Shown one piece after another: positions 2,603 to 38,743 of a stretch of DNA of 56,296 bases. How positions within the stretch are numbered: position 1 is the first letter of the stretch; each line of letters starts with the position of its first letter. This stretch comes from Pseudomonadota bacterium (GTDB lineage Bacteria > Desulfobacterota > Anaeroferrophillalia > Anaeroferrophillales > Tharpellaceae): NCBI GenBank assembly GCA_030641485.1, contig DAOWHJ010000038.1, forward strand, positions 1 through 56,296, read 5' to 3'. A program made the translations under genes and the position numbers. Under the pieces are notes generated by a model. That model was not told the DNA's origin. It was given only the letters and a program-made list of their open reading frames with translations, and did not search any database.

Positions 2603-3424
2603 TCACCGCTCCACCTTTTCCAACGCACGGCTTCGATCCTTACTCAAATCGACCTCCGCCAGACTCACGTTTTCCGAGGGCAGGACCAGAGTAAATGTAT
2701 TCAGGACATCCAACTGACAAGTTCCAGATAAAGTTTCTAAGTCAAGAATATGCCCACCGGCACGACGCTCATTATCAAGGAAATGAAAATGGTAACCAGG
2801 AACATTGATACCTTTGACAAATGGGGGTGAACGAAAGCCAACAACAGTCCCAGAAACCTCTTCAAGCTCAAAGACTTGCTGTTTTTTCACCACTTCTGCC
2901 AACGGCTTATAGGGTTTCGATTGGGAGGGAACACTCCGAACTTTCATGCGTTTGAATTTGCCGTCTAAACGGACTGCAACAAAGAGATTCTGATTCGGAA
3001 GAATTTCATCAACCAGCTCTTTCAGATTTTTGTAATCTAATCCTGCGGCAACGCTAACTTCTTGCTCGGATTCAAAAAAACAGACACTGGCAAATGGAGT
3101 TTTCAACTCTTTCGCTGGCCGATAAACCCGGCCATCGATTTTAATCTGATAGACAGTTCCGTCCAGAACCACCATCTCGCCATCCAAATGATTAAAGGTG
3201 CCAATACCGAAGTCACCATAACCAAGCAATTTTTGGCAACTCATTTCACCATCATAAACTCCAGCTAAAAGTGCATCTATGGTTGACGTTTGGGTCAAGC
3301 AATCACGATTTACTGAGCGACAGCCCCAGCCGGTTAAAAGGACCAGAGCCAATAGAGCTATCACAAACCGACGATAAAACCGGGCCGTTTTTTCGGTCCT
3401 GACAGTTTTCAACAATTTCTTCAT
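2603..3424 (-). CDS. Alpha-acetolactate decarboxylase family protein with N-terminal signal/anchor sequence (273 aa)
   Basis: TSTIDALLAGVYDGEM...GDFGIGTFNHLDGEMVVLDGTVYQ and GTVVGFRSPPFVKGINVPGYHFHFLDNERRAGGHILD match the AlsD/BudA signature including the His cluster. The N-terminus MKKLL...RRFVIALLALVLLTGWGC is hydrophobic and signal-like. The start overlaps the upstream stop by 4 nt. Confidence 0.85.
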   Translation of the reverse strand: MKKLLKTVRTEKTARFYRRFVIALLALVLLTGWGCRSVNRDCLTQTSTIDALLAGVYDGEMSCQKLLGYGDFGIGTFNHLDGEMVVLDGTVYQIKIDGRVYRPAKELKTPFASVCFFESEQEVSVAAGLDYKNLKELVDEILPNQNLFVAVRLDGKFKRMKVRSVPSQSKPYKPLAEVVKKQQVFELEEVSGTVVGFRSPPFVKGINVPGYHFHFLDNERRAGGHILDLETLSGTCQLDVLNTFTLVLPSENVSLAEVDLSKDRSRALEKVER

Positions 3425-4101
3425 TCAAAATAGTCCTTCACTAAAGGGTCATTGACAACCACATCAAGAAATTTTATGGCCGTGTAATCACGATCTGATT
3501 CATGAATAATAATCTCCACAACGTAACTATAGTCGCCTGAAAAGGTGATCTCTAAAGCGGAGATCAGACGCCGAGCGGCAGACTCTTTCGGGACAAGTTT
3601 TAGGGTTGGTGGATTTTGTTCAAGCAGAGTTATGATATAGTACTTTTGTAAAAGATCAAAATCGGCCGTCGTCCAGGCCGTCACCTGGGTGGCAAAATGT
3701 TTGAGCCAGGGTTCGTTGTCAAGCTTAAACGATTGCACTATGGCACCCTTTTCGTGCCAACGCTGTCCATGGTCCCCACAAACCGAGAGTCCGGAAGCCA
3801 CCGGCTCAGTCAACTCCCAACGCCAGCAATCTGGCTGCTTAAAAACAAATTGGCCCGAAGCCTTTAACACCTCATTAAAAGCCTTAAGATGCTTCTCCTG
3901 CTCCATCCGGCTGGAGATTGTTGTAACTTGAGCTGCAGCGGCACTGATACTCTGCAACACCACGGATAATGGTTCATCAGTAACGGCTGCCACAGCCACG
4001 GAGTTTGACGACAACAGCCCCCAGCCTCCACAAAAAAATAGACATAACGCAAACCCCAAAAGGGTCAGGCGCATTGAACAGGCTGACTTTATGTTTCTCA
4101 A
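3421..4101 (-). CDS. LolA-like periplasmic lipid/lipoprotein carrier family protein (226 aa)
   Basis: Signal peptide (LTLLGFALCLFFCGGWG). The LolA-type pattern is ...GQFVFKQPDCWRWELTEPVASGLSVCGDHGQRW. It overlaps both neighbouring genes by 4 nt. Confidence 0.65.
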   Translation of the reverse strand: MRNIKSACSMRLTLLGFALCLFFCGGWGLLSSNSVAVAAVTDEPLSVVLQSISAAAAQVTTISSRMEQEKHLKAFNEVLKASGQFVFKQPDCWRWELTEPVASGLSVCGDHGQRWHEKGAIVQSFKLDNEPWLKHFATQVTAWTTADFDLLQKYYIITLLEQNPPTLKLVPKESAARRLISALEITFSGDYSYVVEIIIHESDRDYTAIKFLDVVVNDPLVKDYFE

Positions 4102-4565
4102 TTACTCCCCCCGGCAGCAGACGGCACCCAGAGCTTCAACTCAGCCTCAGCAACCGGCTCAGACGCAACCTTCACAACTGCATCAGCGATATAAAATTCA
4201 CCGATCTGGATTTTGGTTGCAACTTCAATTGTCAGGATTTCACCCGTTCCAACCCGCCGCCATGAATTAAAGTGCCTGACCCCGACTAGAAAACCGAGGC
4301 TTGGGTCACTTTCGGATAAACGATCTTCGTAGCCGCGCAAACAGGCGTAGGCCTGAGCCATCATCTCAAGGACAACCACTTCCTCCAAACAGCCACCCGC
4401 TTGCTGAGCGGTGCTGTCACTGAAAACGGTATCCGATTTTGCTTCAGCCAGAATCATGCCTAAACCTTGCGCACGGTCATAGGAGTGCAGTTCGTCAACC
4501 AACAACATGGTTTCACGGTGCGGAAGCAGCTCACAGGCGGGCAAAGGCAGCTCAACGTTTTTCAT
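4098..4565 (-). CDS. Hot-dog fold 3-hydroxyacyl-ACP dehydratase-like protein (ApeP/ApeI-like, 155 aa)
   Basis: LPHRETMLLVDEL motif near the N-terminus and the size are typical of the FabA/FabZ-related dehydratases found in aryl-polyene-type clusters. Confidence 0.7.
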   Translation of the reverse strand: MKNVELPLPACELLPHRETMLLVDELHSYDRAQGLGMILAEAKSDTVFSDSTAQQAGGCLEEVVVLEMMAQAYACLRGYEDRLSESDPSLGFLVGVRHFNSWRRVGTGEILTIEVATKIQIGEFYIADAVVKVASEPVAEAELKLWVPSAAGGSN

Positions 4566-4569
4566 TAAT

Positions 4570-5037
4570 TTACGACCGACTCACATAGAGCAGACGTTCT
4601 TCACTGCTGACAATTTCAATACGAATATTGATCAGGTTGGTTAACGGCAATAACCCCTCAGCCTTTTCTGGCCACTCAATCACTAAAACTCCAGGTTCAG
4701 CCAGATAATCGTTAAAACCCAATTCAAACAGCTCATCTCTATCACCAAGACGATAGAGGTCGAGATGGTAAAGCGGCAAACGCCCCCGATATTCATTGAT
4801 CAGAGTAAAAGTCGGGCTGTTGAGATAGTACCAATCGGGAACCCCCAAGCCTTTGGCTATACCTTTGGTCAGTAAGGTTTTACCCGCACCAAGATCGCCT
4901 TGCAAGGTCACAACATAGAGTTCATCCTGGAATGTGGCGCCAAGTTTTTCACCAAAGTCTAACGTCTCCGTAAAAGAAGAGGTTGCCAGGGACCTATCTG
5001 TGAATGCCATTTTTTCCCATATCTTCGTTATGCTCAA
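4570..5037 (-). CDS. tsaE: tRNA threonylcarbamoyladenosine (t6A) biosynthesis ATPase TsaE (155 aa)
   Basis: P-loop LQGDLGAGKTLLTKGIAKGLG followed by SPTFTLINEY...LYHLDLYRL, the YjeE/TsaE signature. Confidence 0.9.
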   Translation of the reverse strand: MSITKIWEKMAFTDRSLATSSFTETLDFGEKLGATFQDELYVVTLQGDLGAGKTLLTKGIAKGLGVPDWYYLNSPTFTLINEYRGRLPLYHLDLYRLGDRDELFELGFNDYLAEPGVLVIEWPEKAEGLLPLTNLINIRIEIVSSEERLLYVSRS

Positions 5038-5227
5038 AAAATTATCCTCGAAATATTACACATATGTTGCGACCGAAGAGAGTGCTCTTGCGGTACGGGT
5101 AATTTTCCTCACATACCTCGATCTGAGAAAAAATTGCTATTCTCAGACAGGCTCCTGACGGATTTTCCAATTTCATTGTAAATTCCTAAAAACACTGGAA
5201 TGGCTAAGTAAAAATTTTGATATGCAA

Positions 5228-5295
5228 GATGTCGTGCTTTTTCAGGCATGAGACCATACATGTAGTATGTCGAGTGCATGAAAAAGCACGACATC
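5228..5295. other. Long perfect hairpin (17-bp stem, 34-nt loop) between nnr and tsaE
   Basis: GATGTCGTGCTTTTTCA (5228-5244) is the exact reverse complement of TGAAAAAGCACGACATC (5279-5295). It starts 18 nt after the nnr stop on the minus strand. No adjacent U-tract. Confidence 0.6.
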
Positions 5296-5312
5296 GCCGG
5301 AGATCGAATTTT

Positions 5313-6911
5313 TTACGACGCCATCAACCATTGGGAAAGGGTTGCGGGCAAGGCCCTTTCAAGTTCAACCGCGGTCACACCATGGCTCATTCCGGCAGCC
5401 AATAGGTATTCGGCCAGCAAACCATGGAGAAAGACACCAGCCTGGGCGGCAGCCAAAAAGTCCAAACCTTGTGCCAGAAGGCTACCAATAATACCAGTTA
5501 AAATATCACCAGAACCAGCGGTCGCGAGCAGGGCATTGCCACTTGAATTTAGCGAAAGGGCACCGGATGGTGTCGCAATCACGGTCGCAGCCCCCTTAAG
5601 TACAACATAAACCCCCAGATTAACTGCCAATTCACGAGCAGAATCCAAACGCCGATTTTGAATGTCACGGGTTTCGCACTTTAATAGACGGGCCATCTCA
5701 CCGGGATGTGGGGTTAAGATTGTCTGAAAACGATTCTTGGGTAAAATGTCGGGGTTTTCAGCCAGCAGAGTCAAAGCATCGGCATCGAGAACTACCGGCA
5801 ATAAAGAACTTTTGAGCAAATTTGCGGTCAACTCGGCGGCGGCATCAGTTAATCCCAACCCTGGTCCAATCGCTAAAGCACTCTTGCCCAAGCAAATTTC
5901 TTCAATTTCAGAGACTGAGGTCACCCGGCTATGATCTGATTCAGATTCCGCCAAAAAAACCAGCATCAGAGCAGGATTCCGCCCTTCCAGTCGTTTAGCT
6001 AAGCTTTTCGGCAATGCTAATGAGCTAAGTCCACAGCCACAATGCAGTGCTGCTCCAGCCGCCAGCAGGCCCGCTCCAGATTTACCGGCACTACCAGCAA
6101 AGGTCAACAGATGACCACGACTGCCTTTATGAATATTTGCCTTTACTGTCATTTCAGGCAGTAAAGGGCGACAAAATTCGGCGGTTAAAAGCTGGATGGC
6201 ATCTTTTTCAGCTGCGGCCCATATTTGTGGGATGCCTATATCAACAATCTCGACTTGACCGGCATAGTTGCAACCAGGAGAGACAAAAAGCCCGGGTTTG
6301 CCAAAGGCAAAGGTCGCCGTGGCCGTAGCCTGCACCGCACTACCCAGCGGCAGGCCTGAATCAGCATCCAGACCGGAAGGGATATCGAGAGCTAACACGG
6401 GCCCGGAAAACTCATTAATTGCGGCAACGACCTCGGCATAAAGCCCACGGATATTGCTCTTGAGCCCAGTCCCCAAAAGACCATCAACCAAAATTTTTTG
6501 CTCTTTTAAAGTCGGTTTTAATTTAGACCAGCACTGCTCATCAATTAACTCGACAACTTCACCACCAAGACGTATAAATGCCTCAAGATTAACTTTGGCA
6601 TCACCACTCACTACGGCCTTAGCTGCCAGCAAGGCCACCCTGACTTTAGGATATCCTGCCAGCAACAGAACCCGGGCGACAACCAGCGCATCACCGCCGT
6701 TATTGCCTTTGCCAGCAAATATGAGAATTTCATCCGTGAAGTTGTCGAGCCAACCTGATTCTTCAATCAGGCTCACAGCCCCACGCCCAGCCTCCTCCAT
6801 CAAAACCACTCCAGGAATTCCAATCTCACGAATCGCACGCTCATCCAGCGCCCGCATTCGGGCAGCTGTTAGCAGCTTTATATCTCCAACTCTCAACCTT
6901 TTCATATTCAA
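5313..6911 (-). CDS. nnr: Bifunctional NAD(P)H-hydrate repair enzyme Nnr (epimerase + ADP-dependent dehydratase, 532 aa)
   Basis: N-terminal YjeF_N pattern (FAGKGNNGGDALVVAR) plus a C-terminal carbohydrate-kinase-like domain (VLDADAL...VLTPHPGEMARL...GSGDILTGIIGSLLAQG). Confidence 0.9.
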   Translation of the reverse strand: MNMKRLRVGDIKLLTAARMRALDERAIREIGIPGVVLMEEAGRGAVSLIEESGWLDNFTDEILIFAGKGNNGGDALVVARVLLLAGYPKVRVALLAAKAVVSGDAKVNLEAFIRLGGEVVELIDEQCWSKLKPTLKEQKILVDGLLGTGLKSNIRGLYAEVVAAINEFSGPVLALDIPSGLDADSGLPLGSAVQATATATFAFGKPGLFVSPGCNYAGQVEIVDIGIPQIWAAAEKDAIQLLTAEFCRPLLPEMTVKANIHKGSRGHLLTFAGSAGKSGAGLLAAGAALHCGCGLSSLALPKSLAKRLEGRNPALMLVFLAESESDHSRVTSVSEIEEICLGKSALAIGPGLGLTDAAAELTANLLKSSLLPVVLDADALTLLAENPDILPKNRFQTILTPHPGEMARLLKCETRDIQNRRLDSARELAVNLGVYVVLKGAATVIATPSGALSLNSSGNALLATAGSGDILTGIIGSLLAQGLDFLAAAQAGVFLHGLLAEYLLAAGMSHGVTAVELERALPATLSQWLMAS

Positions 6912-7660
6912 TCAACCGCCCGCATCTCTTTAAGTTTCAAGGCCATCTTCGCTTTCACCTGTTTACGCATGACAATATGGGCATCTTCGCCAGTGAATGC
7001 AGCCGGATCAACCGGAGGAAGCGCCTGCATCCGCACCCGAGCCGGACGGAGACAAAAAGTTCCCGGGGGTAAGAGTCGGTCGGTACCAGTAATACAGAGC
7101 GGTACCAGCGGCAGGTTAAGTTTTACTGCGAGCAGAAAAGCACCCGAATAAAAACGCTGCAACTCACCATCACGACTGCGATGCCCTTCCGGAAAAAAGA
7201 GAATTGAGCCCCCGGCATCAGTAATTAAACGGGCCTCTTCGGCACTCGCAGAAAAACCGGCATCCTCAACATCAAGATAGCGCGCCCAGCGCATGAAAGC
7301 CGTATACCAAAAGAGTCGACGAAAGGGCCAGGCTCTAACGACAAAAGCAATATCACTTACCGGCTGGAGCGCCATACAGAAGGTGTCGAAAAAAGAGAGG
7401 TGGTTGATAACATAGATACAGGGGGTGCGTTGCCGATACGCTTGGTCAAAACCTTCACGTTTGAAACTGACAAAGGGCAAGACAATCAGCATCCAGACCC
7501 GGCCATAGAGCCATATAAAATGGCGCATAATCTTCGCCACCGACCAACGACTGACCCCACGCCAAAGCAAGAAAGTAACCGGTGAAATCAGCAGGCCAAC
7601 CACCGTCCAGATGATAAGCAGTGGGTAAACCCAGAGATTCATCAGAGCCAACATCTTCAA
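6908..7660 (-). CDS. Lysophospholipid (1-acyl-sn-glycerol-3-phosphate) acyltransferase family protein, PlsC-like (250 aa)
   Basis: N-terminal membrane helices, HX4D-type motif INHLSFFDT and FPEGHRSRDG motif. It overlaps the ACP and nnr genes by 4 nt each. Confidence 0.8.
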   Translation of the reverse strand: MKMLALMNLWVYPLLIIWTVVGLLISPVTFLLWRGVSRWSVAKIMRHFIWLYGRVWMLIVLPFVSFKREGFDQAYRQRTPCIYVINHLSFFDTFCMALQPVSDIAFVVRAWPFRRLFWYTAFMRWARYLDVEDAGFSASAEEARLITDAGGSILFFPEGHRSRDGELQRFYSGAFLLAVKLNLPLVPLCITGTDRLLPPGTFCLRPARVRMQALPPVDPAAFTGEDAHIVMRKQVKAKMALKLKEMRAVD

Positions 7661-7923
7661 TCTGCTGCCGTTTCGGTTTCCCGTTTTTTTGTGATCACAA
7701 AACGATGGATATCACCTAAAGTTCGAATTTCACGCAAGCCTTCGTCATCACGAATCTTGATCTCAAGCAGACCTTCAAGGACAACCACCATATCGACAAT
7801 ATCGAGACTGTCAAGACCTAAGTCAGCAAAAATCTCAGCCTCCGAGACCATAGCCGACTCATCAAGTTCAAACTCCTCAATCAATGAATCATTGACCAAA
7901 GATATTATTTCTACATCTGTCAT
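7657..7923 (-). CDS. Acyl carrier protein (88 aa)
   Basis: Phosphopantetheine attachment motif DLGLDSLDIVDMV. Small and acidic. Confidence 0.85.
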   Translation of the reverse strand: MTDVEIISLVNDSLIEEFELDESAMVSEAEIFADLGLDSLDIVDMVVVLEGLLEIKIRDDEGLREIRTLGDIHRFVITKKRETETAAD

Positions 7924-8057
7924 GTTTTTCCTAATCTCCGGCAGAACCGGATAAGTAACTTACAACTCAGCTTTCTGAGTTAGTTCTTTTGCGTTATGTC
8001 TGAGCACTTTATAGTATCCCGCAAAGACGCAAAGGCGCCATGAAAATCAAAAAAATC

Positions 8058-8209
8058 GTAACTATTCAGGTTTCCACTATAAAACCACAACAAATGGCGG
8101 CGAACATTGCTTCGCTCCCATAAACGGGGTCACAGCTGGGGTGCTAACGCACCTTGTACCAGCAGTGACCCCAATCCCGGCAGTTTGCAGATGGCACCTG
8201 AATAGTTAC
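8058..8209. mobile_element. MITE-like palindromic element, family A copy 1 (152 bp)
   Basis: Perfect 14-bp terminal inverted repeats GTAACTATTCAGGT (8058-8071) / ACCTGAATAGTTAC (8196-8209). Internal nested stems are GGGGTCAC/GTGACCCC and GGTGC-TAAC-GCACC. It is homologous to 12194-12347 and 31909-32097. Confidence 0.75.
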
Positions 8210-9435
8210 AATTTATCTACAGACTTCAGCACCAGACAGGAATTGACTCCGCCTAGAGCAAAATTGTTTTTTAACACCAGATTCACAGAGCCCTTCCTGA
8301 CCCCTGAAAAAATATTTGGCCCAACACAGTCAGGATCTATCTCTTCAAGATTGCGGGTCGGCCAGAGTTCCCCTCGCTGCATCATTGCAACCGTGGCAAT
8401 GGTTTCCAGGCCGCCACTAGCGGCTAGAGTATGACCGAGGTGACCTTTAAGTGAGCTGATGGGTACCTCTTCACCAAAGAGCTCAAGTAGAGCCTGAGCT
8501 TCGGCAATATCACCTTTCTCGGTGGCCGTAGCGTGAGCATTGACGTAGTCGATTGCGCCAGGTTCAACTCCGGCACTCGCCAAAGCTTCAAGCATACAGA
8601 GTTGCATCGCGGCACTACTCGGTTCCGCGATACTTCCGGTCTCAGTCAAGGTGGCAAAGCCAATGATCTCAGCTAAAATATGCGCCCCCCGATTTTCTGC
8701 AGCAGTCAGCTCCTCAAGTACTAAGACTCCGGCGCCCTCACCGCAAACCACCCCATCTCGCCTTCGATCAAATGGGCGGGAGGCTTGAGTCGGCTCTTCA
8801 TTATAGCGAAAAGAGGCCGCATTCATCAAGTCAAAAGTTGCAGCAGAGAGCGGATGAAATTCCTCGGTCCCACCGCAAACCATAGCTTCCTGGATGCCAA
8901 ATTTAATCATCTCATAAGCATACCCCAGAGCTTGACATCCGGTGGCACATGCCGCAGCCGGGGCGAGCAGACGCCCATTAAGACCAAAAAACTGAGCCAC
9001 ATTTGTTGCAGCCGAGTGATTCATGGTCTTAAAAAACAGTGAGGTTTTCATCCGGGAAAAACTCTTATCCACCAAGTGATCGGCAAAAAAGTTTTCACAC
9101 GTTTCCAAGCTACTGATAGTGGTTCCGAGTGCAACCCCATAGCGGCCACTATCATATAGGGCTTCTGGCAAAGCCGCCTGATTCAAGGCTTCACGGGCCG
9201 CGAGTACGGCAAAGATAGATTGTCGCGACATGGAACGCCGCTTATTTCGGGCAATATCCTTATCATTAACCCCCGGCACCAAGGCCGCAAGGCGGGTTCT
9301 TAATCCGTCATAATCAGATAAGCGATCGAGAACTTTGATCGCACTACGGTCATTAAGGAAACCATCTATAAGTTCCTCAACCCCGCGACCGAAGGGCGAA
9401 ATCGCACCCATTCCCGTAATCACTACCCGTCGCAT
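8206..9435 (-). CDS. Beta-ketoacyl-ACP synthase, FabF/FabB-like (409 aa)
   Basis: Catalytic triad motifs are present: AAACATGCQALG (Cys), NAHATATEKGD (His), KGHLGHTLAASG (His). The stop codon lies inside the terminal repeat of the family A element. Confidence 0.9.
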   Translation of the reverse strand: MRRVVITGMGAISPFGRGVEELIDGFLNDRSAIKVLDRLSDYDGLRTRLAALVPGVNDKDIARNKRRSMSRQSIFAVLAAREALNQAALPEALYDSGRYGVALGTTISSLETCENFFADHLVDKSFSRMKTSLFFKTMNHSAATNVAQFFGLNGRLLAPAAACATGCQALGYAYEMIKFGIQEAMVCGGTEEFHPLSAATFDLMNAASFRYNEEPTQASRPFDRRRDGVVCGEGAGVLVLEELTAAENRGAHILAEIIGFATLTETGSIAEPSSAAMQLCMLEALASAGVEPGAIDYVNAHATATEKGDIAEAQALLELFGEEVPISSLKGHLGHTLAASGGLETIATVAMMQRGELWPTRNLEEIDPDCVGPNIFSGVRKGSVNLVLKNNFALGGVNSCLVLKSVDKL

Positions 9436-10940
9436 ACAACCTCACGCCTCAAGGCCTCGACCTTATCGTGACCAACAATCTCACCGACTGCCATAAGTGC
9501 CGAAGTAATTGCCCCCAAAAGCCCTGGGGCCGTAGTCGCTTGGCCGGCTAGGAAAAAATTCTCAAGTCTGGTTTTGGCGGCTGGATTAAATTGTCCGACC
9601 ATATGTTTTACCCCATAAAGTGACCCGGTGGGGGATAAGTTAATCCGTTGCAAAGTTTTTTTCGTCGCCACACACTCAACCTTGAGCCCTGCGCCTAACT
9701 CCGGCAACAAACCTGAAATTCGTTCGCGCACCTGCTCCCCAATTTGCACTTTTCCCTCTGCATATGCAAACCTTGACTGAGCCTCGCCAGCGGCAACCTC
9801 AGAAGCGGCGGGAAGAATGGCAGTTATACCACACTCATGAGCACCGGTAAAGCCACCGGAACTGGCGAAGTTAAGATAGAGTAGGCGTTCGCAAAGCGGC
9901 AAGTCAGGAGCAAACAGGTCGGTTCCCGGCGAGGGCAGAAAAAAGAAGTTTCGACCGGCAAAGTCGTAAGAATCGGAGGCTTCCCCACCTAAAGCACTTC
10001 CTCGCTGACGCTCACAGCGCAAAAAAACGATTTCAGCACTTGCAGTTTCAGCTAAGGCGTTAAGTCGACGCCGATAAACTGGCCGAAAAACCGAATCAGG
10101 AACCAGAGCCAACATCGCTTTAGGATGAATAGTTGAGACACAATTTACAGCCTGAAGACGCTCGCCATTAGCACAGGCAAGCCCGGCAAACGCCCCCGCC
10201 GCAGTCAACTCCACCTCGCTCACCTGGTGGCGACAGAAAAGATCAACCCCACTGCGTTCACATGCCGCAACCAAAGCCTTAACCAAAGCCCTTCCCCCAC
10301 CCTTAAAGGTTGAGGCCGAACGATAGTAACCATCAACCACACCAGCATGAATTGCAAAGGGGACTTCAGAGGGCTTAGTTCCATACAAAAGGCAATGTAC
10401 CTGCAACAAGGTTCGGAGCTCACCTGAAATTGCCAACTCAGCAAATACCTGCTCCAGACTTTGCTCATGTAGAGCCGCAAGACTCAAAGGAGAGAAGGCC
10501 GCTTGCGGATGATAATAGGGTAAATTTTGCGTGACTTCCTGAACCCGCCCCAAGTACTTCGTGATGGGGTTACGTTGCTCAGGGAAACGCTTTTGCAATG
10601 CCAGGCTCAGAGCGTCATAACCTTGCGGGAAAGAGAAATTCAAACCACTTTCAGGCTGAATGATGGTGTCATAGGCCAACTCATCAAAGGCGACCCGATG
10701 CAGGTCCTCAGCAACCCCTAAAAGACTGAGACTGCGATCAAGAACGCCGCCACTCTCCAGCCCGCCGGCATAGTGAAATCCCGCCTCAAAATAGACCCCG
10801 TTACGGACAAATCCATCAATCAACGGGGCCGGTCCTGAAGCCTGCTCAAGCAGGGCCACGCGAAAGCCAAAACGGGCCAGCAGCAAGGCACTGCTAATCC
10901 CGGAGACCCCGGCTCCGATAACTAGGTAATCATATTTCAT
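9423..10940 (-). CDS. NAD(P)/FAD-dependent oxidoreductase, phytoene desaturase family (505 aa)
   Basis: YDYLVIGAGVSGISSALLLARFGFRVALLEQ Rossmann motif. It overlaps the upstream KS by 4 nt and the downstream KS by 13 nt. Confidence 0.7.
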   Translation of the reverse strand: MKYDYLVIGAGVSGISSALLLARFGFRVALLEQASGPAPLIDGFVRNGVYFEAGFHYAGGLESGGVLDRSLSLLGVAEDLHRVAFDELAYDTIIQPESGLNFSFPQGYDALSLALQKRFPEQRNPITKYLGRVQEVTQNLPYYHPQAAFSPLSLAALHEQSLEQVFAELAISGELRTLLQVHCLLYGTKPSEVPFAIHAGVVDGYYRSASTFKGGGRALVKALVAACERSGVDLFCRHQVSEVELTAAGAFAGLACANGERLQAVNCVSTIHPKAMLALVPDSVFRPVYRRRLNALAETASAEIVFLRCERQRGSALGGEASDSYDFAGRNFFFLPSPGTDLFAPDLPLCERLLYLNFASSGGFTGAHECGITAILPAASEVAAGEAQSRFAYAEGKVQIGEQVRERISGLLPELGAGLKVECVATKKTLQRINLSPTGSLYGVKHMVGQFNPAAKTRLENFFLAGQATTAPGLLGAITSALMAVGEIVGHDKVEALRREVVCDG

Positions 10941-12172
10941 GGGGTGCCAAAATCGAGCAGCAGCGAAGCGTTGGAACCACCAAAACCCGCGGCATTACAG
11001 AGTACCTTATCAGGTTTTTGCAAGCAAGTTTCATTTAATATTCGCAAACCCGCAGTACTCTCATCATGTTCAAAAAAATTAATCGTCGGGGCCATAAAAC
11101 CAGCTTCTGCCATAATCACAGCGTAGACTGCGGTCGCCGCTCCAGCCATCCAAAGTTCATGACCGGTCATCGACTTAAGAGCACTGACCCAAGGCATCGA
11201 TGACGCTGAAAAAACTGACCTGATATTTTCGGCCTCAGCGGCATCACCCGCCGGGGTTGAAGTCGCGTGTGCCAGAAGCAAACAGATATCTTCAGGGTCA
11301 AGGTTTGCATCCATTAATGCCGCCCGCATAGACCGAGCCAGACCGTCAACACTCGGCACCGAAAGAGTACCGCCATCAGAAGAGAAACCGTATCCAGCAA
11401 CCTCACCTAAAATATTTGCCCCACGCTTCTGCGCCAGATCATAATTTTCCAAGACCAAGGCGGCAGCCCCGCCACTGGGGACCAAACCGTCTCGATCTTT
11501 ATCAAAGGGTCGTGATGCGGCCACCGGATCATCAATCCGTGACGAAAAGGCACCGAGGGCATCAAAGCTACACATCGACTCCCAATTAATCTCCTGAGCC
11601 CCACCACAGATAACCCGCTCCTGACGACCTAAAGCGATCAAGTCCGCAGCCTGGCCAATCGCATGCCCGCTACTTGAACAGGCCGAGCTTAACGTCCAAC
11701 TTGCCCCTTGGGTCCCAAGCAAAACATTCAGGTTCATGGTTATAGCCGAGGTCATCGCCCGAAAGACCAAGCCACTTCCAAGTTTATGGGTCTCTCCATG
11801 TTGACGTAAAAGCTCAACCTGCTCCACCGCCGCCAGACAACTCGAATCACAACCAAAGATCAAACCGCTTTGCGGGTTACGTAACTCTTCGTCATGAAGG
11901 CCAGCTTGGGCCAAAGCTTCACACACCGCAACATAAGCATGCTGGGCAAAATCCGGCATCGTTTTACGCTGCTTTCGACTTAAAAAACGCTCCGGACAAA
12001 CCTCTGGCAGGCGACCGGTTAGCGGGCTGCGAAAGCCCGCCGTTTGGCGCACTTCATCTGCGACAATCCCAGATTGCCCAGCCTTCAGAGCCCCTGCAAC
12101 CGTCTCAACCCCGACCCCGAGACAAGAAACAATCCCAACCCCAGTTATCGCAACTCGGTTTCGTTCTACCAT
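10937..12172 (-). CDS. Beta-ketoacyl-ACP synthase, FabB/FabF-like (411 aa)
   Basis: SSACSSSGHAIGQA (Cys), AHATSTPAGD (His), KSMTGHELWMAG (His). Confidence 0.9.
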   Translation of the reverse strand: MVERNRVAITGVGIVSCLGVGVETVAGALKAGQSGIVADEVRQTAGFRSPLTGRLPEVCPERFLSRKQRKTMPDFAQHAYVAVCEALAQAGLHDEELRNPQSGLIFGCDSSCLAAVEQVELLRQHGETHKLGSGLVFRAMTSAITMNLNVLLGTQGASWTLSSACSSSGHAIGQAADLIALGRQERVICGGAQEINWESMCSFDALGAFSSRIDDPVAASRPFDKDRDGLVPSGGAAALVLENYDLAQKRGANILGEVAGYGFSSDGGTLSVPSVDGLARSMRAALMDANLDPEDICLLLAHATSTPAGDAAEAENIRSVFSASSMPWVSALKSMTGHELWMAGAATAVYAVIMAEAGFMAPTINFFEHDESTAGLRILNETCLQKPDKVLCNAAGFGGSNASLLLDFGTP

Positions 12173-12193
12173 AAAGCCCTATACAAACAATCA

Positions 12194-12347
12194 GTATACA
12201 ATTCAGGTCCCCCCACTATAAAGCCACAACAAATGGCGGCGAACATTGCTTCGCTCCCATAAACGGGGTCAAAGCTGGGGTGCTGACGCACCTAGTACCA
12301 GCAATGACCCCAATCCCGGCAGTTCAGATCGCACCTGAATAGTTACA
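12194..12347. mobile_element. MITE-like palindromic element, family A copy 2 (154 bp)
   Basis: Collinear with copy 1 at high identity. The right terminal repeat ACCTGAATAGTTAC is intact and the left one is degenerate (GTATACAATTCAGGT). Flanking octamers AACAATCA / AATAATTA match 6 of 8. Confidence 0.7.
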
Positions 12348-12358
12348 ATAATTATTGG

Positions 12359-12979
12359 TTAACGATGGTTAACACCGGGCATGCCTTGCGTGTTTCCCAT
12401 TCCCAACATACCGGGGATATTCGGCATTGCAATTTTACTGAAATTGGCTGGGACCTTAAACAGGTGATCCGGTTGCGGGGCAGAGTTAATATTACGATAG
12501 TTGACTTCGGCTTCATCGGAGATGACACGAACCGGGAGGCTCTCTTTTTTCGCAATCCAGTAAGTTACCTTTTCGCCCTCATCAGCCAACTCATATTTAT
12601 TGCAATCAACCCCATTTACAGTTTCACTGCCGAGTTTTTTTGCCTCTTTTCCCAGCTCCTGATTCCAATCTCCAGGCATATCATCCCCCTCCTCAGGGTC
12701 GATAGCCATCTCTAAGTAACGCTTTTCCTGCGGCATCAAAGTCCAAGCAACTCCTTTATCCGGGCGGCTAATCAAAATAATTTTACGCCCACCCTGACTC
12801 ATCTCATGACGACTCATCTCGCCCTTGAAAAAAATCTTTCCTTGAGCGACAACCTGCCCCCCTGAAGTAGTCTCCATATCGGCACTATACTCTGCCGCCT
12901 GCAGGATGGGCAAAACCGCAAAACATAGCAAAAAAATGGCACTAAGCATTATCGTTGCAGTTCTTTTCATAAAGCTCAT
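12359..12979 (-). CDS. Periplasmic LolA-fold-like protein (DUF4412-type, 206 aa)
   Basis: Signal peptide (IMLSAIFLLCFAVLPILQA). The pattern GKIFFKGEMSRHEM...ILISRPDKGVAWTLMPQEKRYLE...GSETVNGVDCNKYE...LFKVPANF is typical of this family as I recall it. Not checked against an HMM. Confidence 0.5.
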   Translation of the reverse strand: MSFMKRTATIMLSAIFLLCFAVLPILQAAEYSADMETTSGGQVVAQGKIFFKGEMSRHEMSQGGRKIILISRPDKGVAWTLMPQEKRYLEMAIDPEEGDDMPGDWNQELGKEAKKLGSETVNGVDCNKYELADEGEKVTYWIAKKESLPVRVISDEAEVNYRNINSAPQPDHLFKVPANFSKIAMPNIPGMLGMGNTQGMPGVNHR

Positions 12980-13080
12980 ATCTCCCCCTCGTTAACTCAA
13001 AATTTGTAGATATTCAGTTTCATTTAATTAAATACTAAGTTCGTGGATTTTCTTTGTAACTTAATCGCCAATCACAATAT

Positions 13081-13809
13081 CTAAATAATTCCACCATTCA
13101 CAGATAAAACCTGGCCGGTTATATATGACGCTTTGTCAGAGCAGAGAAAGGAGACCGCATCGGCAACCTCTTGCGCCTGCCCGAATCTACCCAATGGGAT
13201 AGTCGGTAAAATCTTATCAACGGGCAAATCTTCTGTCATCTCGGTTTCAATAAAACCGGGGGCAACCGCATTGACCAGAATTTTACGTTTTGCAATTTCA
13301 GCGGCAAGTGAGCGCGTAGCTCCTATCAAACCTGATTTTGCGGCACTATAGTTAACCTGACCGGCAACCCCGATCTGGCCAGAGGTTGAGACAACATTGA
13401 CAATCCGTCCAGATCTTTTACGAAGCATCCGGGCGACAACCAGTTTGGTGATCAGAAAAAAACCATCCAGATGAACTCTTAACACCGACTGCCAATCATA
13501 ACGACTCATCAGGGCCATCACCCCGTCCCGGGCAAAACCGGCATTATTAACCAGAATATAAGGGGTCTCTTCTGCCAGCAGCGGACTTAGCGCCCCATCC
13601 ACCGCCTCTTCATCCGCGACATCAAAGGGCAACAACCGACACTCTCGACCAAGGGCAGTAATTTTATCGGCAACCGACTTGGCCGCATCGTGATTGGAAC
13701 GGTAGTTAAGCCAGATATCGTAGCCATCGGCGGCCAGGGTTTCCGCAATCGCCGCGCCAATCCCGCGCCCGGCTCCGGTGACCAAGGCAATCTTATTGTT
13801 TTTCGACAT
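13081..13809 (-). CDS. fabG: 3-oxoacyl-ACP reductase FabG-like SDR (242 aa)
   Basis: KIALVTGAGRGIGAAIA (TGxxxGIG), NNAG, YSAAKSG (YxxxK). The start is trimmed from the ORF-track 13917 to ATG 13807-13809, which has a GGGAG RBS and avoids overlap with the upstream gene. Confidence 0.85.
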   Translation of the reverse strand: MSKNNKIALVTGAGRGIGAAIAETLAADGYDIWLNYRSNHDAAKSVADKITALGRECRLLPFDVADEEAVDGALSPLLAEETPYILVNNAGFARDGVMALMSRYDWQSVLRVHLDGFFLITKLVVARMLRKRSGRIVNVVSTSGQIGVAGQVNYSAAKSGLIGATRSLAAEIAKRKILVNAVAPGFIETEMTEDLPVDKILPTIPLGRFGQAQEVADAVSFLCSDKASYITGQVLSVNGGII

Positions 13810-13822
13810 ACTCCCAACCATT

Positions 13823-14407
13823 CTAATATCTAACGTTGACCACTTTACCCTTACTGTTGAACTCAACCACAACGGTGCGAAAACGATTACGCCAATATTT
13901 CCATTGGTTATCGTCAAGAGATGGGGTTTCGTGTGCCGCAGGGTAGCCCAAAGCTGTCATTACCCCTTTTTTGGTCATCCCCTTGTAAGCCTTACCCTTT
14001 TTGATTCCTTTCAGGTCAACTGCAGAAAAACCTTTCAAAGAGACCGGTTTAGGGGAGAGAATCAGCTCCTCATACTCATCAACACTGACCCCTAAACGAC
14101 TTTCATGGACCTCAAAAACCCCATGTCGACCATCTTCAAGGTCATAATAAAAACCATAGTTTTTCATGAAACGTTTCCAGGTTCGAACTGTCAATTTAGT
14201 GTTGGGCGGAATAATGACGTGACCGGCCCCGGGATCGGTATAGTTGGCATAGCTCGACTTCAACAAGCCTTTCTTATCCTTCTGCGCATGGATATTATAC
14301 TTGTTATAAAAGGTTTCGCTGGCGGCAAAGACATTGGCAAAAAAACCACCCAGCAAAAAACTCACCAACAAAAACAGAACTGAAATCTGCGTAACTTTTT
14401 TAATCAT
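13823..14407 (-). CDS. Secreted protein of unknown function with C-terminal BamE/SmpA_OmlA-like segment (194 aa)
   Basis: The start is trimmed to ATG 14405-14407 behind AAGGAG. Signal peptide MIKKVTQISVLFLLVSFLLGGFFANVFA. The C-terminal GMTKKGVMTALGYPA...WKYW...VVEFNSKGKVVNV resembles the BamE fold signature. Confidence 0.5.
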   Translation of the reverse strand: MIKKVTQISVLFLLVSFLLGGFFANVFAASETFYNKYNIHAQKDKKGLLKSSYANYTDPGAGHVIIPPNTKLTVRTWKRFMKNYGFYYDLEDGRHGVFEVHESRLGVSVDEYEELILSPKPVSLKGFSAVDLKGIKKGKAYKGMTKKGVMTALGYPAAHETPSLDDNQWKYWRNRFRTVVVEFNSKGKVVNVRY

Positions 14408-27805: not shown

Positions 27806-29614
27806 CTAACTATATACTTCATCGATATCAGCGGCAAATTTTTTGTAGACATTGGCCCGACGAATTTTCATGGTCGCCGTCATCTCATCATCATCATGAT
27901 CGAGTTCTTTAGTTAAAAGTTTGAAGCGCCGGATATTTTCGACTCGGGCAAATTGTTGGTTCGCCTTTTCAACCTCATCTTTAATCAAAGCAAATACTTG
28001 GGGCAGGCCCGAGAGATTTCTGAAGTTAGTAAAAGGGATCTCTTGATCGATCGCCCACTTGCCCACGTTATCAAAATCAATTTGTAACAGGGCGGCCAAA
28101 TAATTACGCCCCTCACCGACAACAATTGCTTCTTTTATGTAGAGGCTGGTGGTCAGCGCATTCTCGATCTCTGAAGGCGCAATATTTTTACCACCTGAGG
28201 TAATGATTATATCCTTCATCCGATCAACAATCTTCAAGTGCCCGTCTTCATCCAGTTGAGCGACATCACCGGTATGGAGCCAACCATCAACGATCATGTC
28301 CTCGGTGGCGGCCTCATTCCTGTAGTAACCGACAAAAATCGATTCGCCGCGCTTTAAGAGTTCTCCCTGATCGCTAAGTTTGAAATCAATTATATCAATT
28401 GCTTTGCCGACCGTACCCAGCTTAATATCATCGCCCATATGGATAAATGAGAGCCCAGTACACTCGGTCATACCATAACCCTCTTTGACTCGAATACCAA
28501 TATCATGAAAAAAGCGCAAGACCTCAGGACTGACTTTAGCCGCCGCTGAAAAACAGAAGTGAGCTTTACGCAAACCAATAAAATTCTGCAAAGAACGAAA
28601 TATTAACCAGTAAGCCAGTGTGTCCAGAAGTTTCAAGCCCGGGCCCACCGCCTTGCCACTCAATAAAAACTCGGACCGTTTCCTGCCGATAGCCATACAT
28701 CTCTGGTAGATCCACCTATTAAAAGGCGAGGTCTCTTTAATATTGATAATGATTGATGACTGCAATTTTTCCCATATTCTTGGGACCCCTAAGAATATAG
28801 TCGGCGCCATTTCCCGTAAATCGGACTGGATGGTGGCAATACTTTCAGCAAAATTTACAGAAAAACCAACATATATCGGCAGAAACAGAGTGAAAATTTT
28901 CTCCGCGACATGACATAAAGGCAGATACGAGACCACCGTATCACTAACCTGTGGTTCTATCGCCGCCATGGTACTGAGGGTTGTTGCTTCAATATTGCGA
29001 TGATTGATCATCGCCCCCTTGGGTTTCCCGGTAGTCCCCGAGGTATAGATCATAATACAGACATCTTCTGGACGACCCTGCGCTACCTCTGAAGCAAAAA
29101 GACCTAAATTTTCTGCGGCCAGTTCACGGCCACGCTTCTCGATCTCCTGAAAAGAGATAATATTCTCTTTCGGATAGTTGCGCAGGCCTTTCATATCGAT
29201 AACAATAATTTTCTGCAATTTGGGTAACTCATCCCAAACCTCGAGAATTTTATCGGTCTGTTCCTGGTCTTCACAGACAACAAAAACCGCCTCGGCATGA
29301 TCGACTACATATTGAACTTCAGTCGATGGGCTGGTCGGATAAACCCCAATCGTAATCCCACCTAAGGCGATAGCACCAAGTTCAGCGTAGATCCATTCCC
29401 GACAATTTTCACTAATGATCGCTAGGTGATCACCACGACAAAAGCCTGAGGCTTTCAAGCCCAAAGCAAAATGAGTTACATGTTCACGATACTGCTGCCA
29501 GGTAATACTCTGCCAGATACCAAATTCTTTCTCGCGCAAAGCCACCTGATCTGAACGCTTGGCCGCCATATCGAGAAAGCTTTGACAAAGGGTTTTTCCG
29601 CTTAACTCAGCCAC
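27806..29614 (-). CDS. AMP-dependent acyl-CoA ligase (long-chain fatty-acid-CoA ligase-like, 602 aa)
   Basis: AMP-binding motif MIYTSGTTGKPKGAMINH, GYGMTE, HTGDVAQLDEDGHLKIVDRMKD. The start overlaps the upstream ABC ATPase gene by 13 nt. Confidence 0.85.
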   Translation of the reverse strand: MAELSGKTLCQSFLDMAAKRSDQVALREKEFGIWQSITWQQYREHVTHFALGLKASGFCRGDHLAIISENCREWIYAELGAIALGGITIGVYPTSPSTEVQYVVDHAEAVFVVCEDQEQTDKILEVWDELPKLQKIIVIDMKGLRNYPKENIISFQEIEKRGRELAAENLGLFASEVAQGRPEDVCIMIYTSGTTGKPKGAMINHRNIEATTLSTMAAIEPQVSDTVVSYLPLCHVAEKIFTLFLPIYVGFSVNFAESIATIQSDLREMAPTIFLGVPRIWEKLQSSIIINIKETSPFNRWIYQRCMAIGRKRSEFLLSGKAVGPGLKLLDTLAYWLIFRSLQNFIGLRKAHFCFSAAAKVSPEVLRFFHDIGIRVKEGYGMTECTGLSFIHMGDDIKLGTVGKAIDIIDFKLSDQGELLKRGESIFVGYYRNEAATEDMIVDGWLHTGDVAQLDEDGHLKIVDRMKDIIITSGGKNIAPSEIENALTTSLYIKEAIVVGEGRNYLAALLQIDFDNVGKWAIDQEIPFTNFRNLSGLPQVFALIKDEVEKANQQFARVENIRRFKLLTKELDHDDDEMTATMKIRRANVYKKFAADIDEVYS

Positions 29615-30423
29615 CGCTTTCTCCGTTTATAATGTTTCACATCACGATAACTCTTCTCTTCTCCCTGCTGGCCAAAACCTAAATAAAACTCCTGGACGTC
29701 TTGGTCGTTCAGGAGCTGGTCAACCGGGCCGTCGAGGACCATGCGCCCATTCTCCATAATATAGCCGTAATTGCTGATTGAAAGTGCAATCTGGGCATTC
29801 TGCTCAACCAACAAAATAGTGGTTCCTTCACGTTGGTTAATCTCTTTAATGATTGCAAAAATCTCATCAACCAAAAGCGGTGCCAACCCTAATGAGGGTT
29901 CATCAAGCATCATTAATTTAGGTTGTGCGAGCAGCGCTCGACTGATTGCCAACATCTGCTGTTCACCCCCGGAAAGATAGCCGGCTAATCTTTTCCGACG
30001 ATCCTTTAATGAAGGAAAATAGCTGAAACACTTCTCAATATCATGGCGCACCTGAGCCCGGTCTTTACGAATGTAAGCCCCGCAACTCAAATTTTCTTCA
30101 ACCGTCAAATCCTCAAAAACCCGCCGCCCTTCAAGTACTTGAAAGATTCCTTGACGTACAATCTGGTGCGGTTGCAGCCCGGCTAATTTTTGCCCCATAA
30201 ACTCAATCGAACCATCACTTATCTCACCATCCTCCAACGGCAGAAAACCGCTGATCGCCTTTAATGTCGTTGACTTGCCGGCTCCGTTAGAACCGAGCAG
30301 GGCCACGATTTCACCTTCAGGAACTTCCAGCGAAAGCCCCTTAAGCACCAGAACAACATGGTTGTAGATAACCTCAATGTTGTTGACCCGAAGCAGCACC
30401 GGTTTTTTTTCTTTAATGGTCAT
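29602..30423 (-). CDS. ABC transporter ATP-binding protein, LivF-like (273 aa)
   Basis: Walker A GSNGAGKSTT, signature LSGGEQQML, Walker B LMMLDEPS. Confidence 0.85.
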   Translation of the reverse strand: MTIKEKKPVLLRVNNIEVIYNHVVLVLKGLSLEVPEGEIVALLGSNGAGKSTTLKAISGFLPLEDGEISDGSIEFMGQKLAGLQPHQIVRQGIFQVLEGRRVFEDLTVEENLSCGAYIRKDRAQVRHDIEKCFSYFPSLKDRRKRLAGYLSGGEQQMLAISRALLAQPKLMMLDEPSLGLAPLLVDEIFAIIKEINQREGTTILLVEQNAQIALSISNYGYIMENGRMVLDGPVDQLLNDQDVQEFYLGFGQQGEEKSYRDVKHYKRRKRWLS

Positions 30424-30535
30424 AAATTTATGGATTTAGGTTTTAATTTTGGTAAATATTCGGCTAACTACCGTAAAGTCGCAGCAAATAGCAGCGATCG
30501 TCGCTTCGCCCACTCGCACCGTTTAAATTCCTGCA

Positions 30536-30567
30536 CCAGGTTGTTCGCCTACCGACGAACAACCTGG
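30536..30567. other. GC-rich 12-bp intercistronic hairpin
   Basis: CCAGGTTGTTCG (30536-30547) / CGAACAACCTGG (30556-30567) with an 8-nt loop. It lies in the 229-nt gap between the binding-protein gene and the LivF-like gene. No U-tract. Confidence 0.5.
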
Positions 30568-30631
30568 CCGTCATTTATTCGACGGGAACTAAAGGTCCCC
30601 GCATCGAAATGGGCTGCACAAACTATTCACA

Positions 30632-30652
30632 AATTCAAGAACACCTTGAATT
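30632..30652 (-). other. 8-bp hairpin abutting the stop codon of the binding-protein gene
   Basis: AATTCAAG-AACAC-CTTGAATT lies immediately next to the stop at 30653-30655. On the minus strand it is followed by TGTGAATAGTTTGTG. Confidence 0.4.
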
Positions 30653-31831: not shown

Positions 31832-31861
31832 CGTCTTCCTCCATTTAACTTAAGTGAAAAC

Positions 31862-31886: not shown

Positions 31887-31908
31887 TAAACTTTACATTA
31901 GAGATGGC

Positions 31909-33267: not shown

Positions 33268-33273
33268 AAGTTT

Positions 33274-34158: not shown

Positions 34159-34171
34159 AATTTTACTATCC

Positions 34172-38742: not shown

Positions 38743-38743
38743 A

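Follow-up and report, generated by a model that had tools for sequence, protein, structure and literature searches.

The stretch of DNA analysed here (hereafter the window: 56,296 nt of contig DAOWHJ010000038.1) carries a tightly packed gene cluster on its minus strand (positions 2603–14407), in which the gene for a flavoprotein with a predicted CrtI/CrtD fold lies between two ketosynthase (KS) genes. A preliminary description of this DNA had assigned the cluster to a fatty acid synthase/polyketide synthase (FAS/PKS)-like system of type II for an envelope lipid, of the aryl polyene (APE) or xanthomonadin kind. The minus-strand open reading frames (ORFs) that it named were all recovered in an ORF list, between positions 2603 and 14485. 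The same was true of the overlaps between them, which measured 4 nt at 3421–3424, 4098–4101, 6908–6911, 7657–7660 and 10937–10940, and 13 nt at 9423–9435. Pfam and NCBIfam searches bore out every domain assignment, and inspection of sequence motifs showed the catalytic residues of the KS, acyl carrier protein (ACP), acyltransferase and dehydratase (DH) genes to be intact, including those of a third KS gene located elsewhere in the window (see below).

The conserved unit begins with a gene for a secreted BamE-like protein (13823–14407). Its match to PF04355 was below the cut-off (19.6 against 23.2 bits), while that of its homologue in a distantly related locus (L053) was above it (25.5 bits); another homologue, in locus L084, was 68% identical. 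The N-terminus of the protein resembles a Sec signal peptide (…VFA/AS), as judged by eye. The next gene encodes a ketoreductase (KR; 13081–13821), a FabG/ApeQ/FlxB-like short-chain dehydrogenase/reductase (SDR; adh_short_C2, 194 bits). Its best NCBIfam match was FlxB_rubin_SDR, at 305.8 bits (under the cut-off of 340), and it passed the FabG model NF004200 (298 > 273). Comparison with a set of 18 Ape proteins of E. coli CFT073 paired it with ApeQ (46% identity, E 6e-66). KSb (10937–12172), the KS upstream of the flavoprotein, has an intact Cys-His-His triad. Its best NCBIfam match was FabB (NF005935; 347 bits, under the cut-off of 630), and its top matches in the Protein Data Bank (PDB) were all FabB enzymes (4XOX, 293 bits; E. 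coli FabB, about 270 bits), with FabF at about 240 bits. By the ranking of its PDB matches KSb is FabB-like, of the β-ketoacyl-ACP synthase I (KAS-I) type, but it is no FabB equivalog. It had no specific counterpart among the 18 Ape proteins.

The flavoprotein gene (9423–10940; PF01593, 61.5 bits) overlaps KSb by 4 nt and the downstream KS gene, KSa, by 13 nt. KSa (8206–9435), which also has an intact triad, is of the ApeR type: its leading PDB matches were PpApeR (4EWG, 308.8 bits) and AbApeR (7F27, 306.7 bits; both identified as ApeR in PMC8358021), with FabF at about 240 bits, and it was 40% identical to E. coli ApeR over its full length. Its score with NF006587 (408 bits) was under the cut-off of 470. 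The ACP (7657–7923; PF00550) has a DSL phosphopantetheine-attachment motif and matched ApeF best (38% identity, E 1e-10); ApeE was unmatched, and comparison of the ACP with the PDB was uninformative. The acyltransferase (6908–7660) is of the PlsC/lysophospholipid acyltransferase type (PF01553, 56.8 bits), with HX4D (HLSFFD) and FPEGHR motifs, and matched only ApeD among the Ape proteins (25% identity, phmmer E 7e-10). The DH (4098–4565), a hot-dog 3-hydroxyacyl-ACP dehydratase (PF22817, 29.6 bits against a cut-off of 27), has the FabZ-type LPHRETMLLVD motif. Its PDB matches were FabZ enzymes and 6QSR_B, and its best Ape match was ApeP, albeit weakly (25% identity, E 0.02). Finally, an exported LolA-like carrier (3421–4101; PF03548, 36.7 bits) had flexirubin LolA2 as its best NCBIfam match (LolA2_flexi, 74.6 bits, under the cut-off of 125) and among the Ape proteins matched only ApeL, also weakly (19% identity).

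Four further genes are interspersed with this unit or follow it: one for an exported DUF4412 protein (12359–12979; PF14371, 51.7 bits), nnr for an NAD(P)HX epimerase/dehydratase (5313–6911; YjeF_N and Carb_kinase domains), tsaE for t6A synthesis (4570–5037; PF02367, 127.9 bits), and one for an exported protein of the acetolactate decarboxylase family, AlsD (2603–3424; PF03306, 278.7 bits). By eye, the translations of the BamE-like, DUF4412, LolA-like and AlsD genes all show hydrophobic, signal-peptide-like N-termini. Three of the 4-nt overlaps depend on TTG start codons (LolA-like gene, 4101; plsC-type gene, 7660; nnr, 6911); an alternative ATG for the LolA-like gene, 27 nt downstream (around 4074), would leave a short gap and no overlap. 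In agreement with the preliminary description, the BamE-like gene most probably starts at the ATG at 14407, behind a strong Shine-Dalgarno sequence (AAGGAG; AAGGAGAGAGAA). The KR gene starts at about 13821 (the limit of the ORF is 13917), one base past the BamE-like stop codon, and the two genes therefore do not truly overlap.

A single-sequence search of the PDB with the flavoprotein matched the Rossmann motif only and returned no close solved relative, so a family profile was needed. The profile built from 52 sequences matched 4REP, a CrtD-like gamma-carotenoid desaturase (E 2.5e-23), and CrtI (4DGK, E 1e-18) over the full length of the protein (residues ∼4–486). The GxGxxG of the N-terminal Rossmann motif for flavin adenine dinucleotide (FAD) was invariant in the family alignment. 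An AlphaFold2 model (pLDDT 89.2, pTM 0.91) gave 4REP as its top Foldseek match (TM 0.78), followed by the archaeal oxidoreductase 3KA7 and plant phytoene desaturase (5MOG), with CrtI at rank 16. Profile, model and Foldseek comparison agree with the earlier label of CrtI-family flavoprotein, and place the protein, by a full-length fold match, in the CrtI/CrtD structural superfamily. The NCBIfam carotenoid models all scored far under their cut-offs (CrtD TIGR02733, 77.4 against 549.7; crtI_fam TIGR02734, 51 against 238). The family is also sharply bounded: its members scored at least 453 bits and the next protein 116 bits, and a second homologue search with the family profile returned the same 77 proteins plus one outlier.

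Scanning one genome per GTDB species identified 223 relatives of the flavoprotein, and 80 of the loci were fetched. Gene order in these was scored by tblastn with all window proteins, only loci long enough to judge being counted for each gene. The conserved order was BamE-like, KR, KSb, flavoprotein, KSa, ACP, PlsC, DH and LolA-like. KSb lay directly upstream of the flavoprotein gene in 72/73 loci and KSa was kept in 77/77; ACP (74/74), PlsC (70/70) and DH (50/50) were likewise never missing, FabG (the KR) was kept in 64/66 and the LolA-like gene in 45/49, and the BamE-like gene preceded that for the KR in 29/59. Median spacing over the 80 loci was 5 nt between KSb and flavoprotein and 11 nt between flavoprotein and KSa. 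Such conservation of gene order across 80 independent loci is far beyond chance, and the suggestion, made in the preliminary description as a way in which its reading might fall, that the flavoprotein and KS genes are adjacent in this genome only can be rejected.

The hosts included Geobacter, Geomonas, Desulfuromusa, Malonomonas, Syntrophus, Syntrophorhabdus, Desulfobacterales, a Nitrospirota metagenome-assembled genome (MAG) and Ca. Deferrimicrobium; those closest to the window were Ca. Tharpella and MAGs labelled ‘Thermodesulfobacteriota/Deltaproteobacteria’. Even the most divergent members (26–27% identity) showed the order KR-KS-FAD-KS or FAD-KS-KR-KS (FAD standing for the flavoprotein) inside APE-like clusters, and the nearest outgroup protein (23% identity) adjoined an ApeI-like dehydratase, a fused KS-KS gene and an MMPL gene. 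In one very divergent locus (L083, 3891–7911) the place of the MMPL exporter beside a KR-KS-FAD-KS-ACP core was taken by a TP_0789/LolA-like protein and a LolCDE-like ABC system, made up of ABC_tran and two MacB_PCD/FtsX genes. An apparent KS-flavoprotein fusion (P0035; PF02801 plus PF01593) was examined and set aside: the C-terminus of a KSb homologue is joined to a flavoprotein that has lost its FAD-binding N-terminus. It is probably a deletion, a pseudogene or an assembly artefact and not a functional fusion, and, being truncated, provides no Rosetta-stone evidence.

The relatives differed in what surrounds this core. In the distant clade, the interval between acyltransferase and dehydratase was either empty or held a PaaK-type ligase (best match flexirubin FlxY, 464.7 bits) and an aromatic amino-acid ammonia-lyase of the tyrosine/histidine type (PF00221, E 4e-166). 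After the LolA gene came an MMPL gene, a DUF3261 gene, an ApeI/FabA-like dehydratase, a 4HBT thioesterase and a pair formed by a KS and a chain-length factor (CLF). One to three B12-binding radical SAM genes were also present, and in some loci a polysaccharide deacetylase. With this parts list, the distant relatives are full APE/flexirubin-type, ‘ladderane-like’ FASII clusters. In the window's own clade (loci L001–L013 and L085), by contrast, the core had no gene for an MMPL, DUF3261, ApeI-like DH, thioesterase, KS/CLF or radical SAM protein in the roughly 10 kb around it. Scanning of the ORFs of the 56-kb window detected no ammonia-lyase, ligase, MMPL, DUF3261, thioesterase or radical SAM gene for the cluster, and no enoyl reductase was found in the window by Pfam scans. 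An ApeM-type MMPL gene was present in 48–49 other loci and in L084, which has the compact order BamE-KR-KS-FAD-KS-ACP-PlsC-DH-LolA-MMPL. In the neighbour-joining tree of the flavoprotein, the window's clade and L084 jointly formed the sister group of the large clade of complete clusters. Since both this sister clade and the outgroups are complete, the arrangement in the window is derived, by loss or by dispersal. The preliminary description was right that ligase, thioesterase and MMPL genes are missing here, and this is a feature of a lineage-specific reduction, as relatives have them.

The same comparison separated core genes from passengers. Insertion of nnr-tsaE between PlsC and DH occurred in L001–L013 and L085 and in no other locus, at the position where 30–31 other loci carry ligase and lyase. 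The two are a housekeeping pair, adjacent in E. coli as well, and passengers within the operon. None of the 80 related loci contained a homologue of the DUF4412 gene, which is an insertion specific to the window's genome. AlsD (TIGR01252, 259 > 180), with a hydrophobic lipoprotein-like N-terminus, was seen behind LolA in just two loci, L002 and L009, where MMPL or unrelated genes stand in other relatives. It is co-transcribed with the LolA-like gene (4-nt overlap) without being a conserved member of the cluster. A periplasmic AlsD at the position of the relatives' MMPL exporter is odd in itself. The second flavoprotein (528–2156), also recovered as an ORF, was considered as a cluster member and rejected: it belongs to a huge RetSat/CrtISO-like family (939 hits in many phyla) and is absent beside the cluster in close relatives. 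Homologues of it, 28% identical to it and 50% to each other, lie just upstream of the distant loci L053 (4325–5998) and L026 (1746–3323), and the family may have a loose association with such clusters. Of the genes first listed, those of the core stand; nnr, tsaE, DUF4412, AlsD and the second flavoprotein do not belong to the conserved set.

The impression that the window holds no further parts needs correction, as an active KS and a CLF-like partner lacking the catalytic Cys were found at 37510–39811, on the plus strand, 23 kb from the core. KS3 (37510–38742), with its Cys-His-His triad present, matched ApeO best among the Ape proteins (35% identity) and was 35–39% identical to the in-cluster KS3 of distant relatives. 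Its PDB matches were 9S5H_B (193 bits), ApeO (6QSP, 172 bits) and 7F28_B (171 bits). In the CLF-like protein (38729–39811; PF13723, 53.7 bits) Ala takes the place of the catalytic Cys, and neither His motif is present. It weakly matched the ApeC chain 7F28_A, E. coli ApeC (23% identity, E 0.02) and the anammox partner 9S5H_C. Its gene shares 14 nt with KS3 and 8 nt with cobU, the pair lying between pabB and cobU-cobS-cobC. The pairing was kept in L081, a 2.6-kb metagenome contig (74% and 60% identity); a scan of metagenomes with the CLF query gave no match, and with the KS3 query that one 2.6-kb contig. KS3/CLF is a probable dispersed member of the cluster. Around it are pabB (35272–36720; TIGR00553, 355.7 > 328.4), the cob genes (39804–41754) and cobT (42566–43723), all on the plus strand. 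Cobalamin loop-assembly genes here, where other lineages have B12-dependent radical SAM genes, may or may not be meaningful.

Among the remaining contents of the window, an AMP-binding gene (27806–29614, minus strand) was tried as the missing starter ligase and discarded, being FadD11-like and part of a Liv-type ABC transporter operon (27806–34939: FadD11-like fatty-acid-CoA ligase, two ATPases, two permeases and a binding protein). A miniature inverted-repeat transposable element (MITE)-like repeat, some 144 nt long and bearing perfect terminal inverted repeats of 10 bp (CTATTCAGGT...ACCTGAATAG), occurs in three copies, all in minus-strand orientation (8062–8205, ∼12200–12342 and ∼31900–32000); its 28-nt core gave three matches where none was expected. 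Two copies occupy the otherwise unexplained gaps between KSa and ACP and between KSb and DUF4412, and the third lies within the Liv-type operon. Further away, on the minus strand, are genes for a 2803-amino acid protein with DUF11, CARDB, LDL-receptor class B and Ig/Fn3-like repeats (45771–54182), probably a giant surface or adhesin-type protein, and for a 210-amino acid protein with HNH endonuclease and HIT (histidine triad) domains (55114–55746). Promoter and terminator scans of the window gave background levels, and an Rfam search of it gave no match.

Taken together, these results make it highly probable that the locus is a reduced envelope-lipid cluster of the APE/flexirubin family. It represents a subtype in which a KAS-I-like KS and a CrtI/CrtD-fold flavoprotein are inserted between an ApeQ-like KR and an ApeR-like KS. 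The class first proposed for it is borne out by specific best matches to the Ape proteins of E. coli CFT073. What is made is far less certain. Since the ammonia-lyase, ligase, thioesterase, MMPL and radical SAM genes have disappeared from the locus in this clade, the product is probably not aryl-capped. The proposal that it is a non-aryl, unsaturated or conjugated acyl chain, built on the cluster's own ACP, esterified to a lysophospholipid and sent to the outer membrane, has somewhat less than an even chance of being right in full.

From homology and gene content we infer the following course. KSb and KSa, perhaps joined by the distal KS3/CLF, would elongate a fatty-acyl primer on the ApeF-like ACP. 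In each round the KR would reduce and the ApeP-like DH dehydrate, and, as no enoyl reductase is encoded, the double bonds would stay in the chain. The flavoprotein, co-translated with both KS proteins, would add, shift or remove C=C bonds on the growing thioester; most probably it would extend or reposition unsaturation beside an existing double bond, like CrtD and UfaD, and the FabB-like KSb would then lengthen the unusual product. FabB (KAS-I) is the KS class specialised in elongating cis-3-enoyl-ACP, and co-inheritance of the flavoprotein with a FabB-like KS suggests that the two form a unit in which an unusual double bond is first made and then extended. The stronger version of this idea, that KSb and the flavoprotein are a ‘desaturate-or-isomerise, then extend’ unit of type II synthesis that operates without O2 to provide new conjugated or polyunsaturated envelope phospholipids, is possible, though unlikely. 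The PlsC-type acyltransferase would finally, like ApeD, attach the completed chain to a lysophospholipid, and the exported LolA-like and BamE-like proteins may carry the lipid to the outer membrane. Acylation and hand-over to LolA-like carriers, suggested in the preliminary description, accord with the published APE-lipid model (bioRxiv 10.1101/2020.12.19.423268).

Several points weigh against this reading. The literature searched reported no product, enzyme activity or genetics for the KS-flavoprotein-KS subtype. Nothing computed separates a desaturase from a RetSat-like saturase (an enoyl-reductase substitute that would give a saturated chain) or a CrtISO-like isomerase, and the probability of any one particular reaction of the flavoprotein must be put well below even. 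The phytoene dehydrogenase (PD)-like proteins of related anammox clusters, kuste3336 and kuste3607, do not replace CrtI: their activity on phytoene in E. coli was below detection, and a change in fatty acids was not reported; this null result on phytoene says nothing positive. The similarities of DH to ApeP, of the LolA-like protein to ApeL and of the CLF-like protein to ApeC are weak (E 0.005–0.02). The window contains no ApeI-like DH partner, second ACP, thioesterase, glycosyltransferase or Ape-type MMPL/RND exporter. Absence of genes was judged on a 56-kb window of the genome, and ‘not aryl-capped’ could be wrong. Finally, the housekeeping genes inside the operon mean that adjacency alone is no proof of function.

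One alternative is that the pathway is a complete aryl-polyene/flexirubin-like one, its remaining genes scattered elsewhere in the genome, and that the product is an aryl polyene lipid. The location of KS3/CLF, 23 kb from the core and still a pair in L081, demonstrates dispersal, and the full set is present in all relatives outside the clade and in the outgroups. However, the missing genes are absent both from the 56-kb window and from about 10 kb around the same-clade cores (contigs of 34–92 kb), and KS3 is only 35–39% identical to the in-cluster KS3 genes. The PabB-type chorismate enzyme encoded just upstream of KS3 might supply an aryl acid, although PabB is an ordinary folate enzyme and no partner ligase is found here. 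A dispersed pathway is thus possible but unlikely. The polyunsaturated hydrocarbons of other bacteria come from Pfa and Ole enzymes, which counts against a second alternative: an O2-independent route to (poly)unsaturated fatty acids (PUFA) for bulk membrane lipids, with the flavoprotein acting on acyl-ACP and KSb elongating. This route would parallel FabA/FabB or FabX logic. The KAS-I type of KSb, its co-inheritance with the flavoprotein in 72/73 loci, the hosts, almost all of which are strict anaerobes, and the shared operon with housekeeping nnr-tsaE in the window's clade are in its favour, as is its earlier proposal by Rattray et al. (2009), with polyunsaturated hydrocarbons found in Desulfotalea (PMC2649909). 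Yet every other lineage embeds the module in export-type APE clusters (LolA, MMPL, DUF3261, Lol-like ABC), an own ACP and acyltransferase are typical of specialised lipids, and no fatty-acid data tie the genes to PUFA; bulk lipid synthesis is therefore judged rather improbable.

The flavoprotein might instead be a RetSat-like saturase or enoyl reductase, the cluster then being a second FAS for a saturated or 3-hydroxy chain of special length in an envelope lipid. The cluster does have KS, KR, DH and ACP genes and no FabI/K/L/V, and flexirubin FlxV was labelled RetSat-like and suggested to be a reductase. The annotations behind that label are, however, automatic, the nearest structural and profile matches of the flavoprotein are desaturases (4REP, CrtI, phytoene desaturase) and not saturases, and canonical APE clusters function without such an enzyme, which makes this explanation quite improbable. 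Least probable is that the locus is a decaying APE-type remnant no longer making a product. About half of the ancestral gene set is gone, and housekeeping genes, the DUF4412 gene and MITE-like repeats have been inserted; against this, all catalytic motifs are intact and the reduced arrangement is kept, tightly spaced, in at least 14 related loci with 55–93% protein identity.

Among the biosynthetic cluster families of Gram-negative bacteria, that of APE type is described as the most widespread, and, to our knowledge, those of its clusters that have been studied are of proteobacterial and Bacteroidota types only. At least 223 species-level genomes, from mostly anaerobic bacteria of environmental importance, carry the KS-flavoprotein-KS subtype, whose parts list is also that of the unsolved anammox ladderane loci. 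The kind of cluster has been known since the comparative genomics of 2009, and genome-mining tools would flag it as of arylpolyene or ladderane type. What is new is the reduced variant, which isolates a conserved core of eight conserved genes with nnr-tsaE passengers and so offers a compact construct for heterologous expression. Orthologues in cultivable and genetically tractable Geobacter/Geomonas make the question directly testable. If the flavoprotein does make or move double bonds on ACP-bound chains without O2, it would be a new biochemical route to unsaturated lipids, and with a desaturate/isomerise-and-extend unit strict anaerobes could set double bonds that lie outside the programme of the usual KS-KR-DH cycle. 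In the window's clade such a unit, and not an aryl polyene, would then be what the cluster is for, and its chemistry would be the anaerobic, PUFA-type one long postulated for the ‘ladderane-like’ clusters.

Comparison with known systems begins with these ‘ladderane-like’ clusters. FASII-like clusters with PD-like genes were described by Rattray et al. (2009) for Geobacter, Pelobacter, Desulfotalea psychrophila and Kuenenia stuttgartiensis (PMC2649909); the combination noted in the preliminary description is not unprecedented. The published clusters combine extra FabB/F paralogues, ACP, FabZ and FabG with PD-like flavoproteins, radical SAM genes, a membrane protein for lipid transport and a phenylacetyl-CoA-ligase-like gene. 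Those parts recur in the Geobacter/Geomonas loci recovered here, whereas radical SAM, ligase and membrane-transporter genes are absent from the window. The PD-like gene of Kuenenia, kuste3607, lies behind a KS/non-canonical-KS pair and ahead of a radical SAM gene, not between two active KS genes.

The carotenoid desaturases CrtD (4REP) and CrtI (4DGK) share the fold of the flavoprotein along its full length, with 17% identity. CrtD lengthens a conjugated system by dehydrogenation beside a double bond already in place, chemistry that UfaD performs on a fatty acyl chain. No carotenoid genes lie near the flavoprotein, which is always flanked by ketosynthases. The precedent suggested for action on fatty acyl chains proved correct: UfaD of Rhodobacter sphaeroides (RSP1091), a phytoene-dehydrogenase-related fatty-acyl desaturase of furan fatty acid synthesis, puts a trans double bond beside an existing one on the acyl chain, generating a conjugated diene (PMC7380195). 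Its substrates are phospholipid-bound chains, it has an apparent need for O2, and its operon lacks KS genes (PMC7380195). Its likeness to the window's flavoprotein is one of description, through kinship with phytoene dehydrogenases.

The flexirubin cluster (flxA-Y of Chitinophaga pinensis/Flavobacterium johnsoniae) shares the local order FlxB SDR, FlxC KAS I/II, FlxD ACP and FlxE acyltransferase. All scores with flexirubin models were under their cut-offs, for the KR and LolA proteins of the window as for the lyase (FlxA, 471 < 700) and the ligase (FlxY, 464.7 < 520) of Geomonas; homologues of FlxA and FlxY are absent from the window. The dialkylresorcinol genes darA/darB are absent from the window: among its proteins scanned, KSa alone touched the DarB model, and weakly (20.9 bits against a cut-off of 550). 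Pfam scans of the window ORFs found no KAS-III-type gene, and a halogenase is absent from the window. The flexirubin cluster does hold a RetSat/CrtI-like gene, flxV (PMC3992019 supplement), which is not located between two KS genes and is likened to the window's flavoprotein by label only. Flexirubin hosts are Bacteroidota, while those of the present subtype are anaerobic Desulfobacterota-like lineages.

The closest parallels are the APE clusters proper. Those of E. coli CFT073, Xenorhabdus doucetiae and Acinetobacter baumannii are type II PKS/FAS systems without an enoyl reductase, as in the window; no characterised aryl polyene of Geobacter or Desulfobacterota was found in the literature searched. 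The core set of Grammbitter et al. comprises apeO/R (KS), apeE/F (ACP), apeC (CLF), apeI/P (DH), apeQ (KR) and apeM (transporter). Where the APE set has the ApeI/ApeP pair and two ACPs, the window has an ApeP-like DH only and a single ACP, closest to ApeF; its matches to the ApeO/ApeC pair (35%; 23%, E 0.02) lie 23 kb off, beside cob genes. Starter supply (ApeH, or ammonia-lyase plus ligase) is absent from the window, as are the ApeM MMPL/RND transporter and the DUF3261 protein ApeN. In the published model, ApeD esterifies a conjugated 26:5 acyl chain to a lysophospholipid, and the APE lipid is exported via the LolA-like/MMPL proteins ApeL, ApeM and ApeN (bioRxiv 10.1101/2020.12.19.423268). 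Member by member, the window has one-to-one homologues of E. coli ApeQ, ApeR, ApeF, ApeD, ApeP and ApeL, and none of ApeA, B, E, G, H, I, J, K, M and N; the secreted BamE-like protein is an addition. The E. coli ape cluster has no flavoprotein, and its apeQ and apeR overlap by 4 nt. Relative to E. coli, KSb and the flavoprotein of the window are therefore an insertion exactly between the homologues of ApeQ and ApeR.

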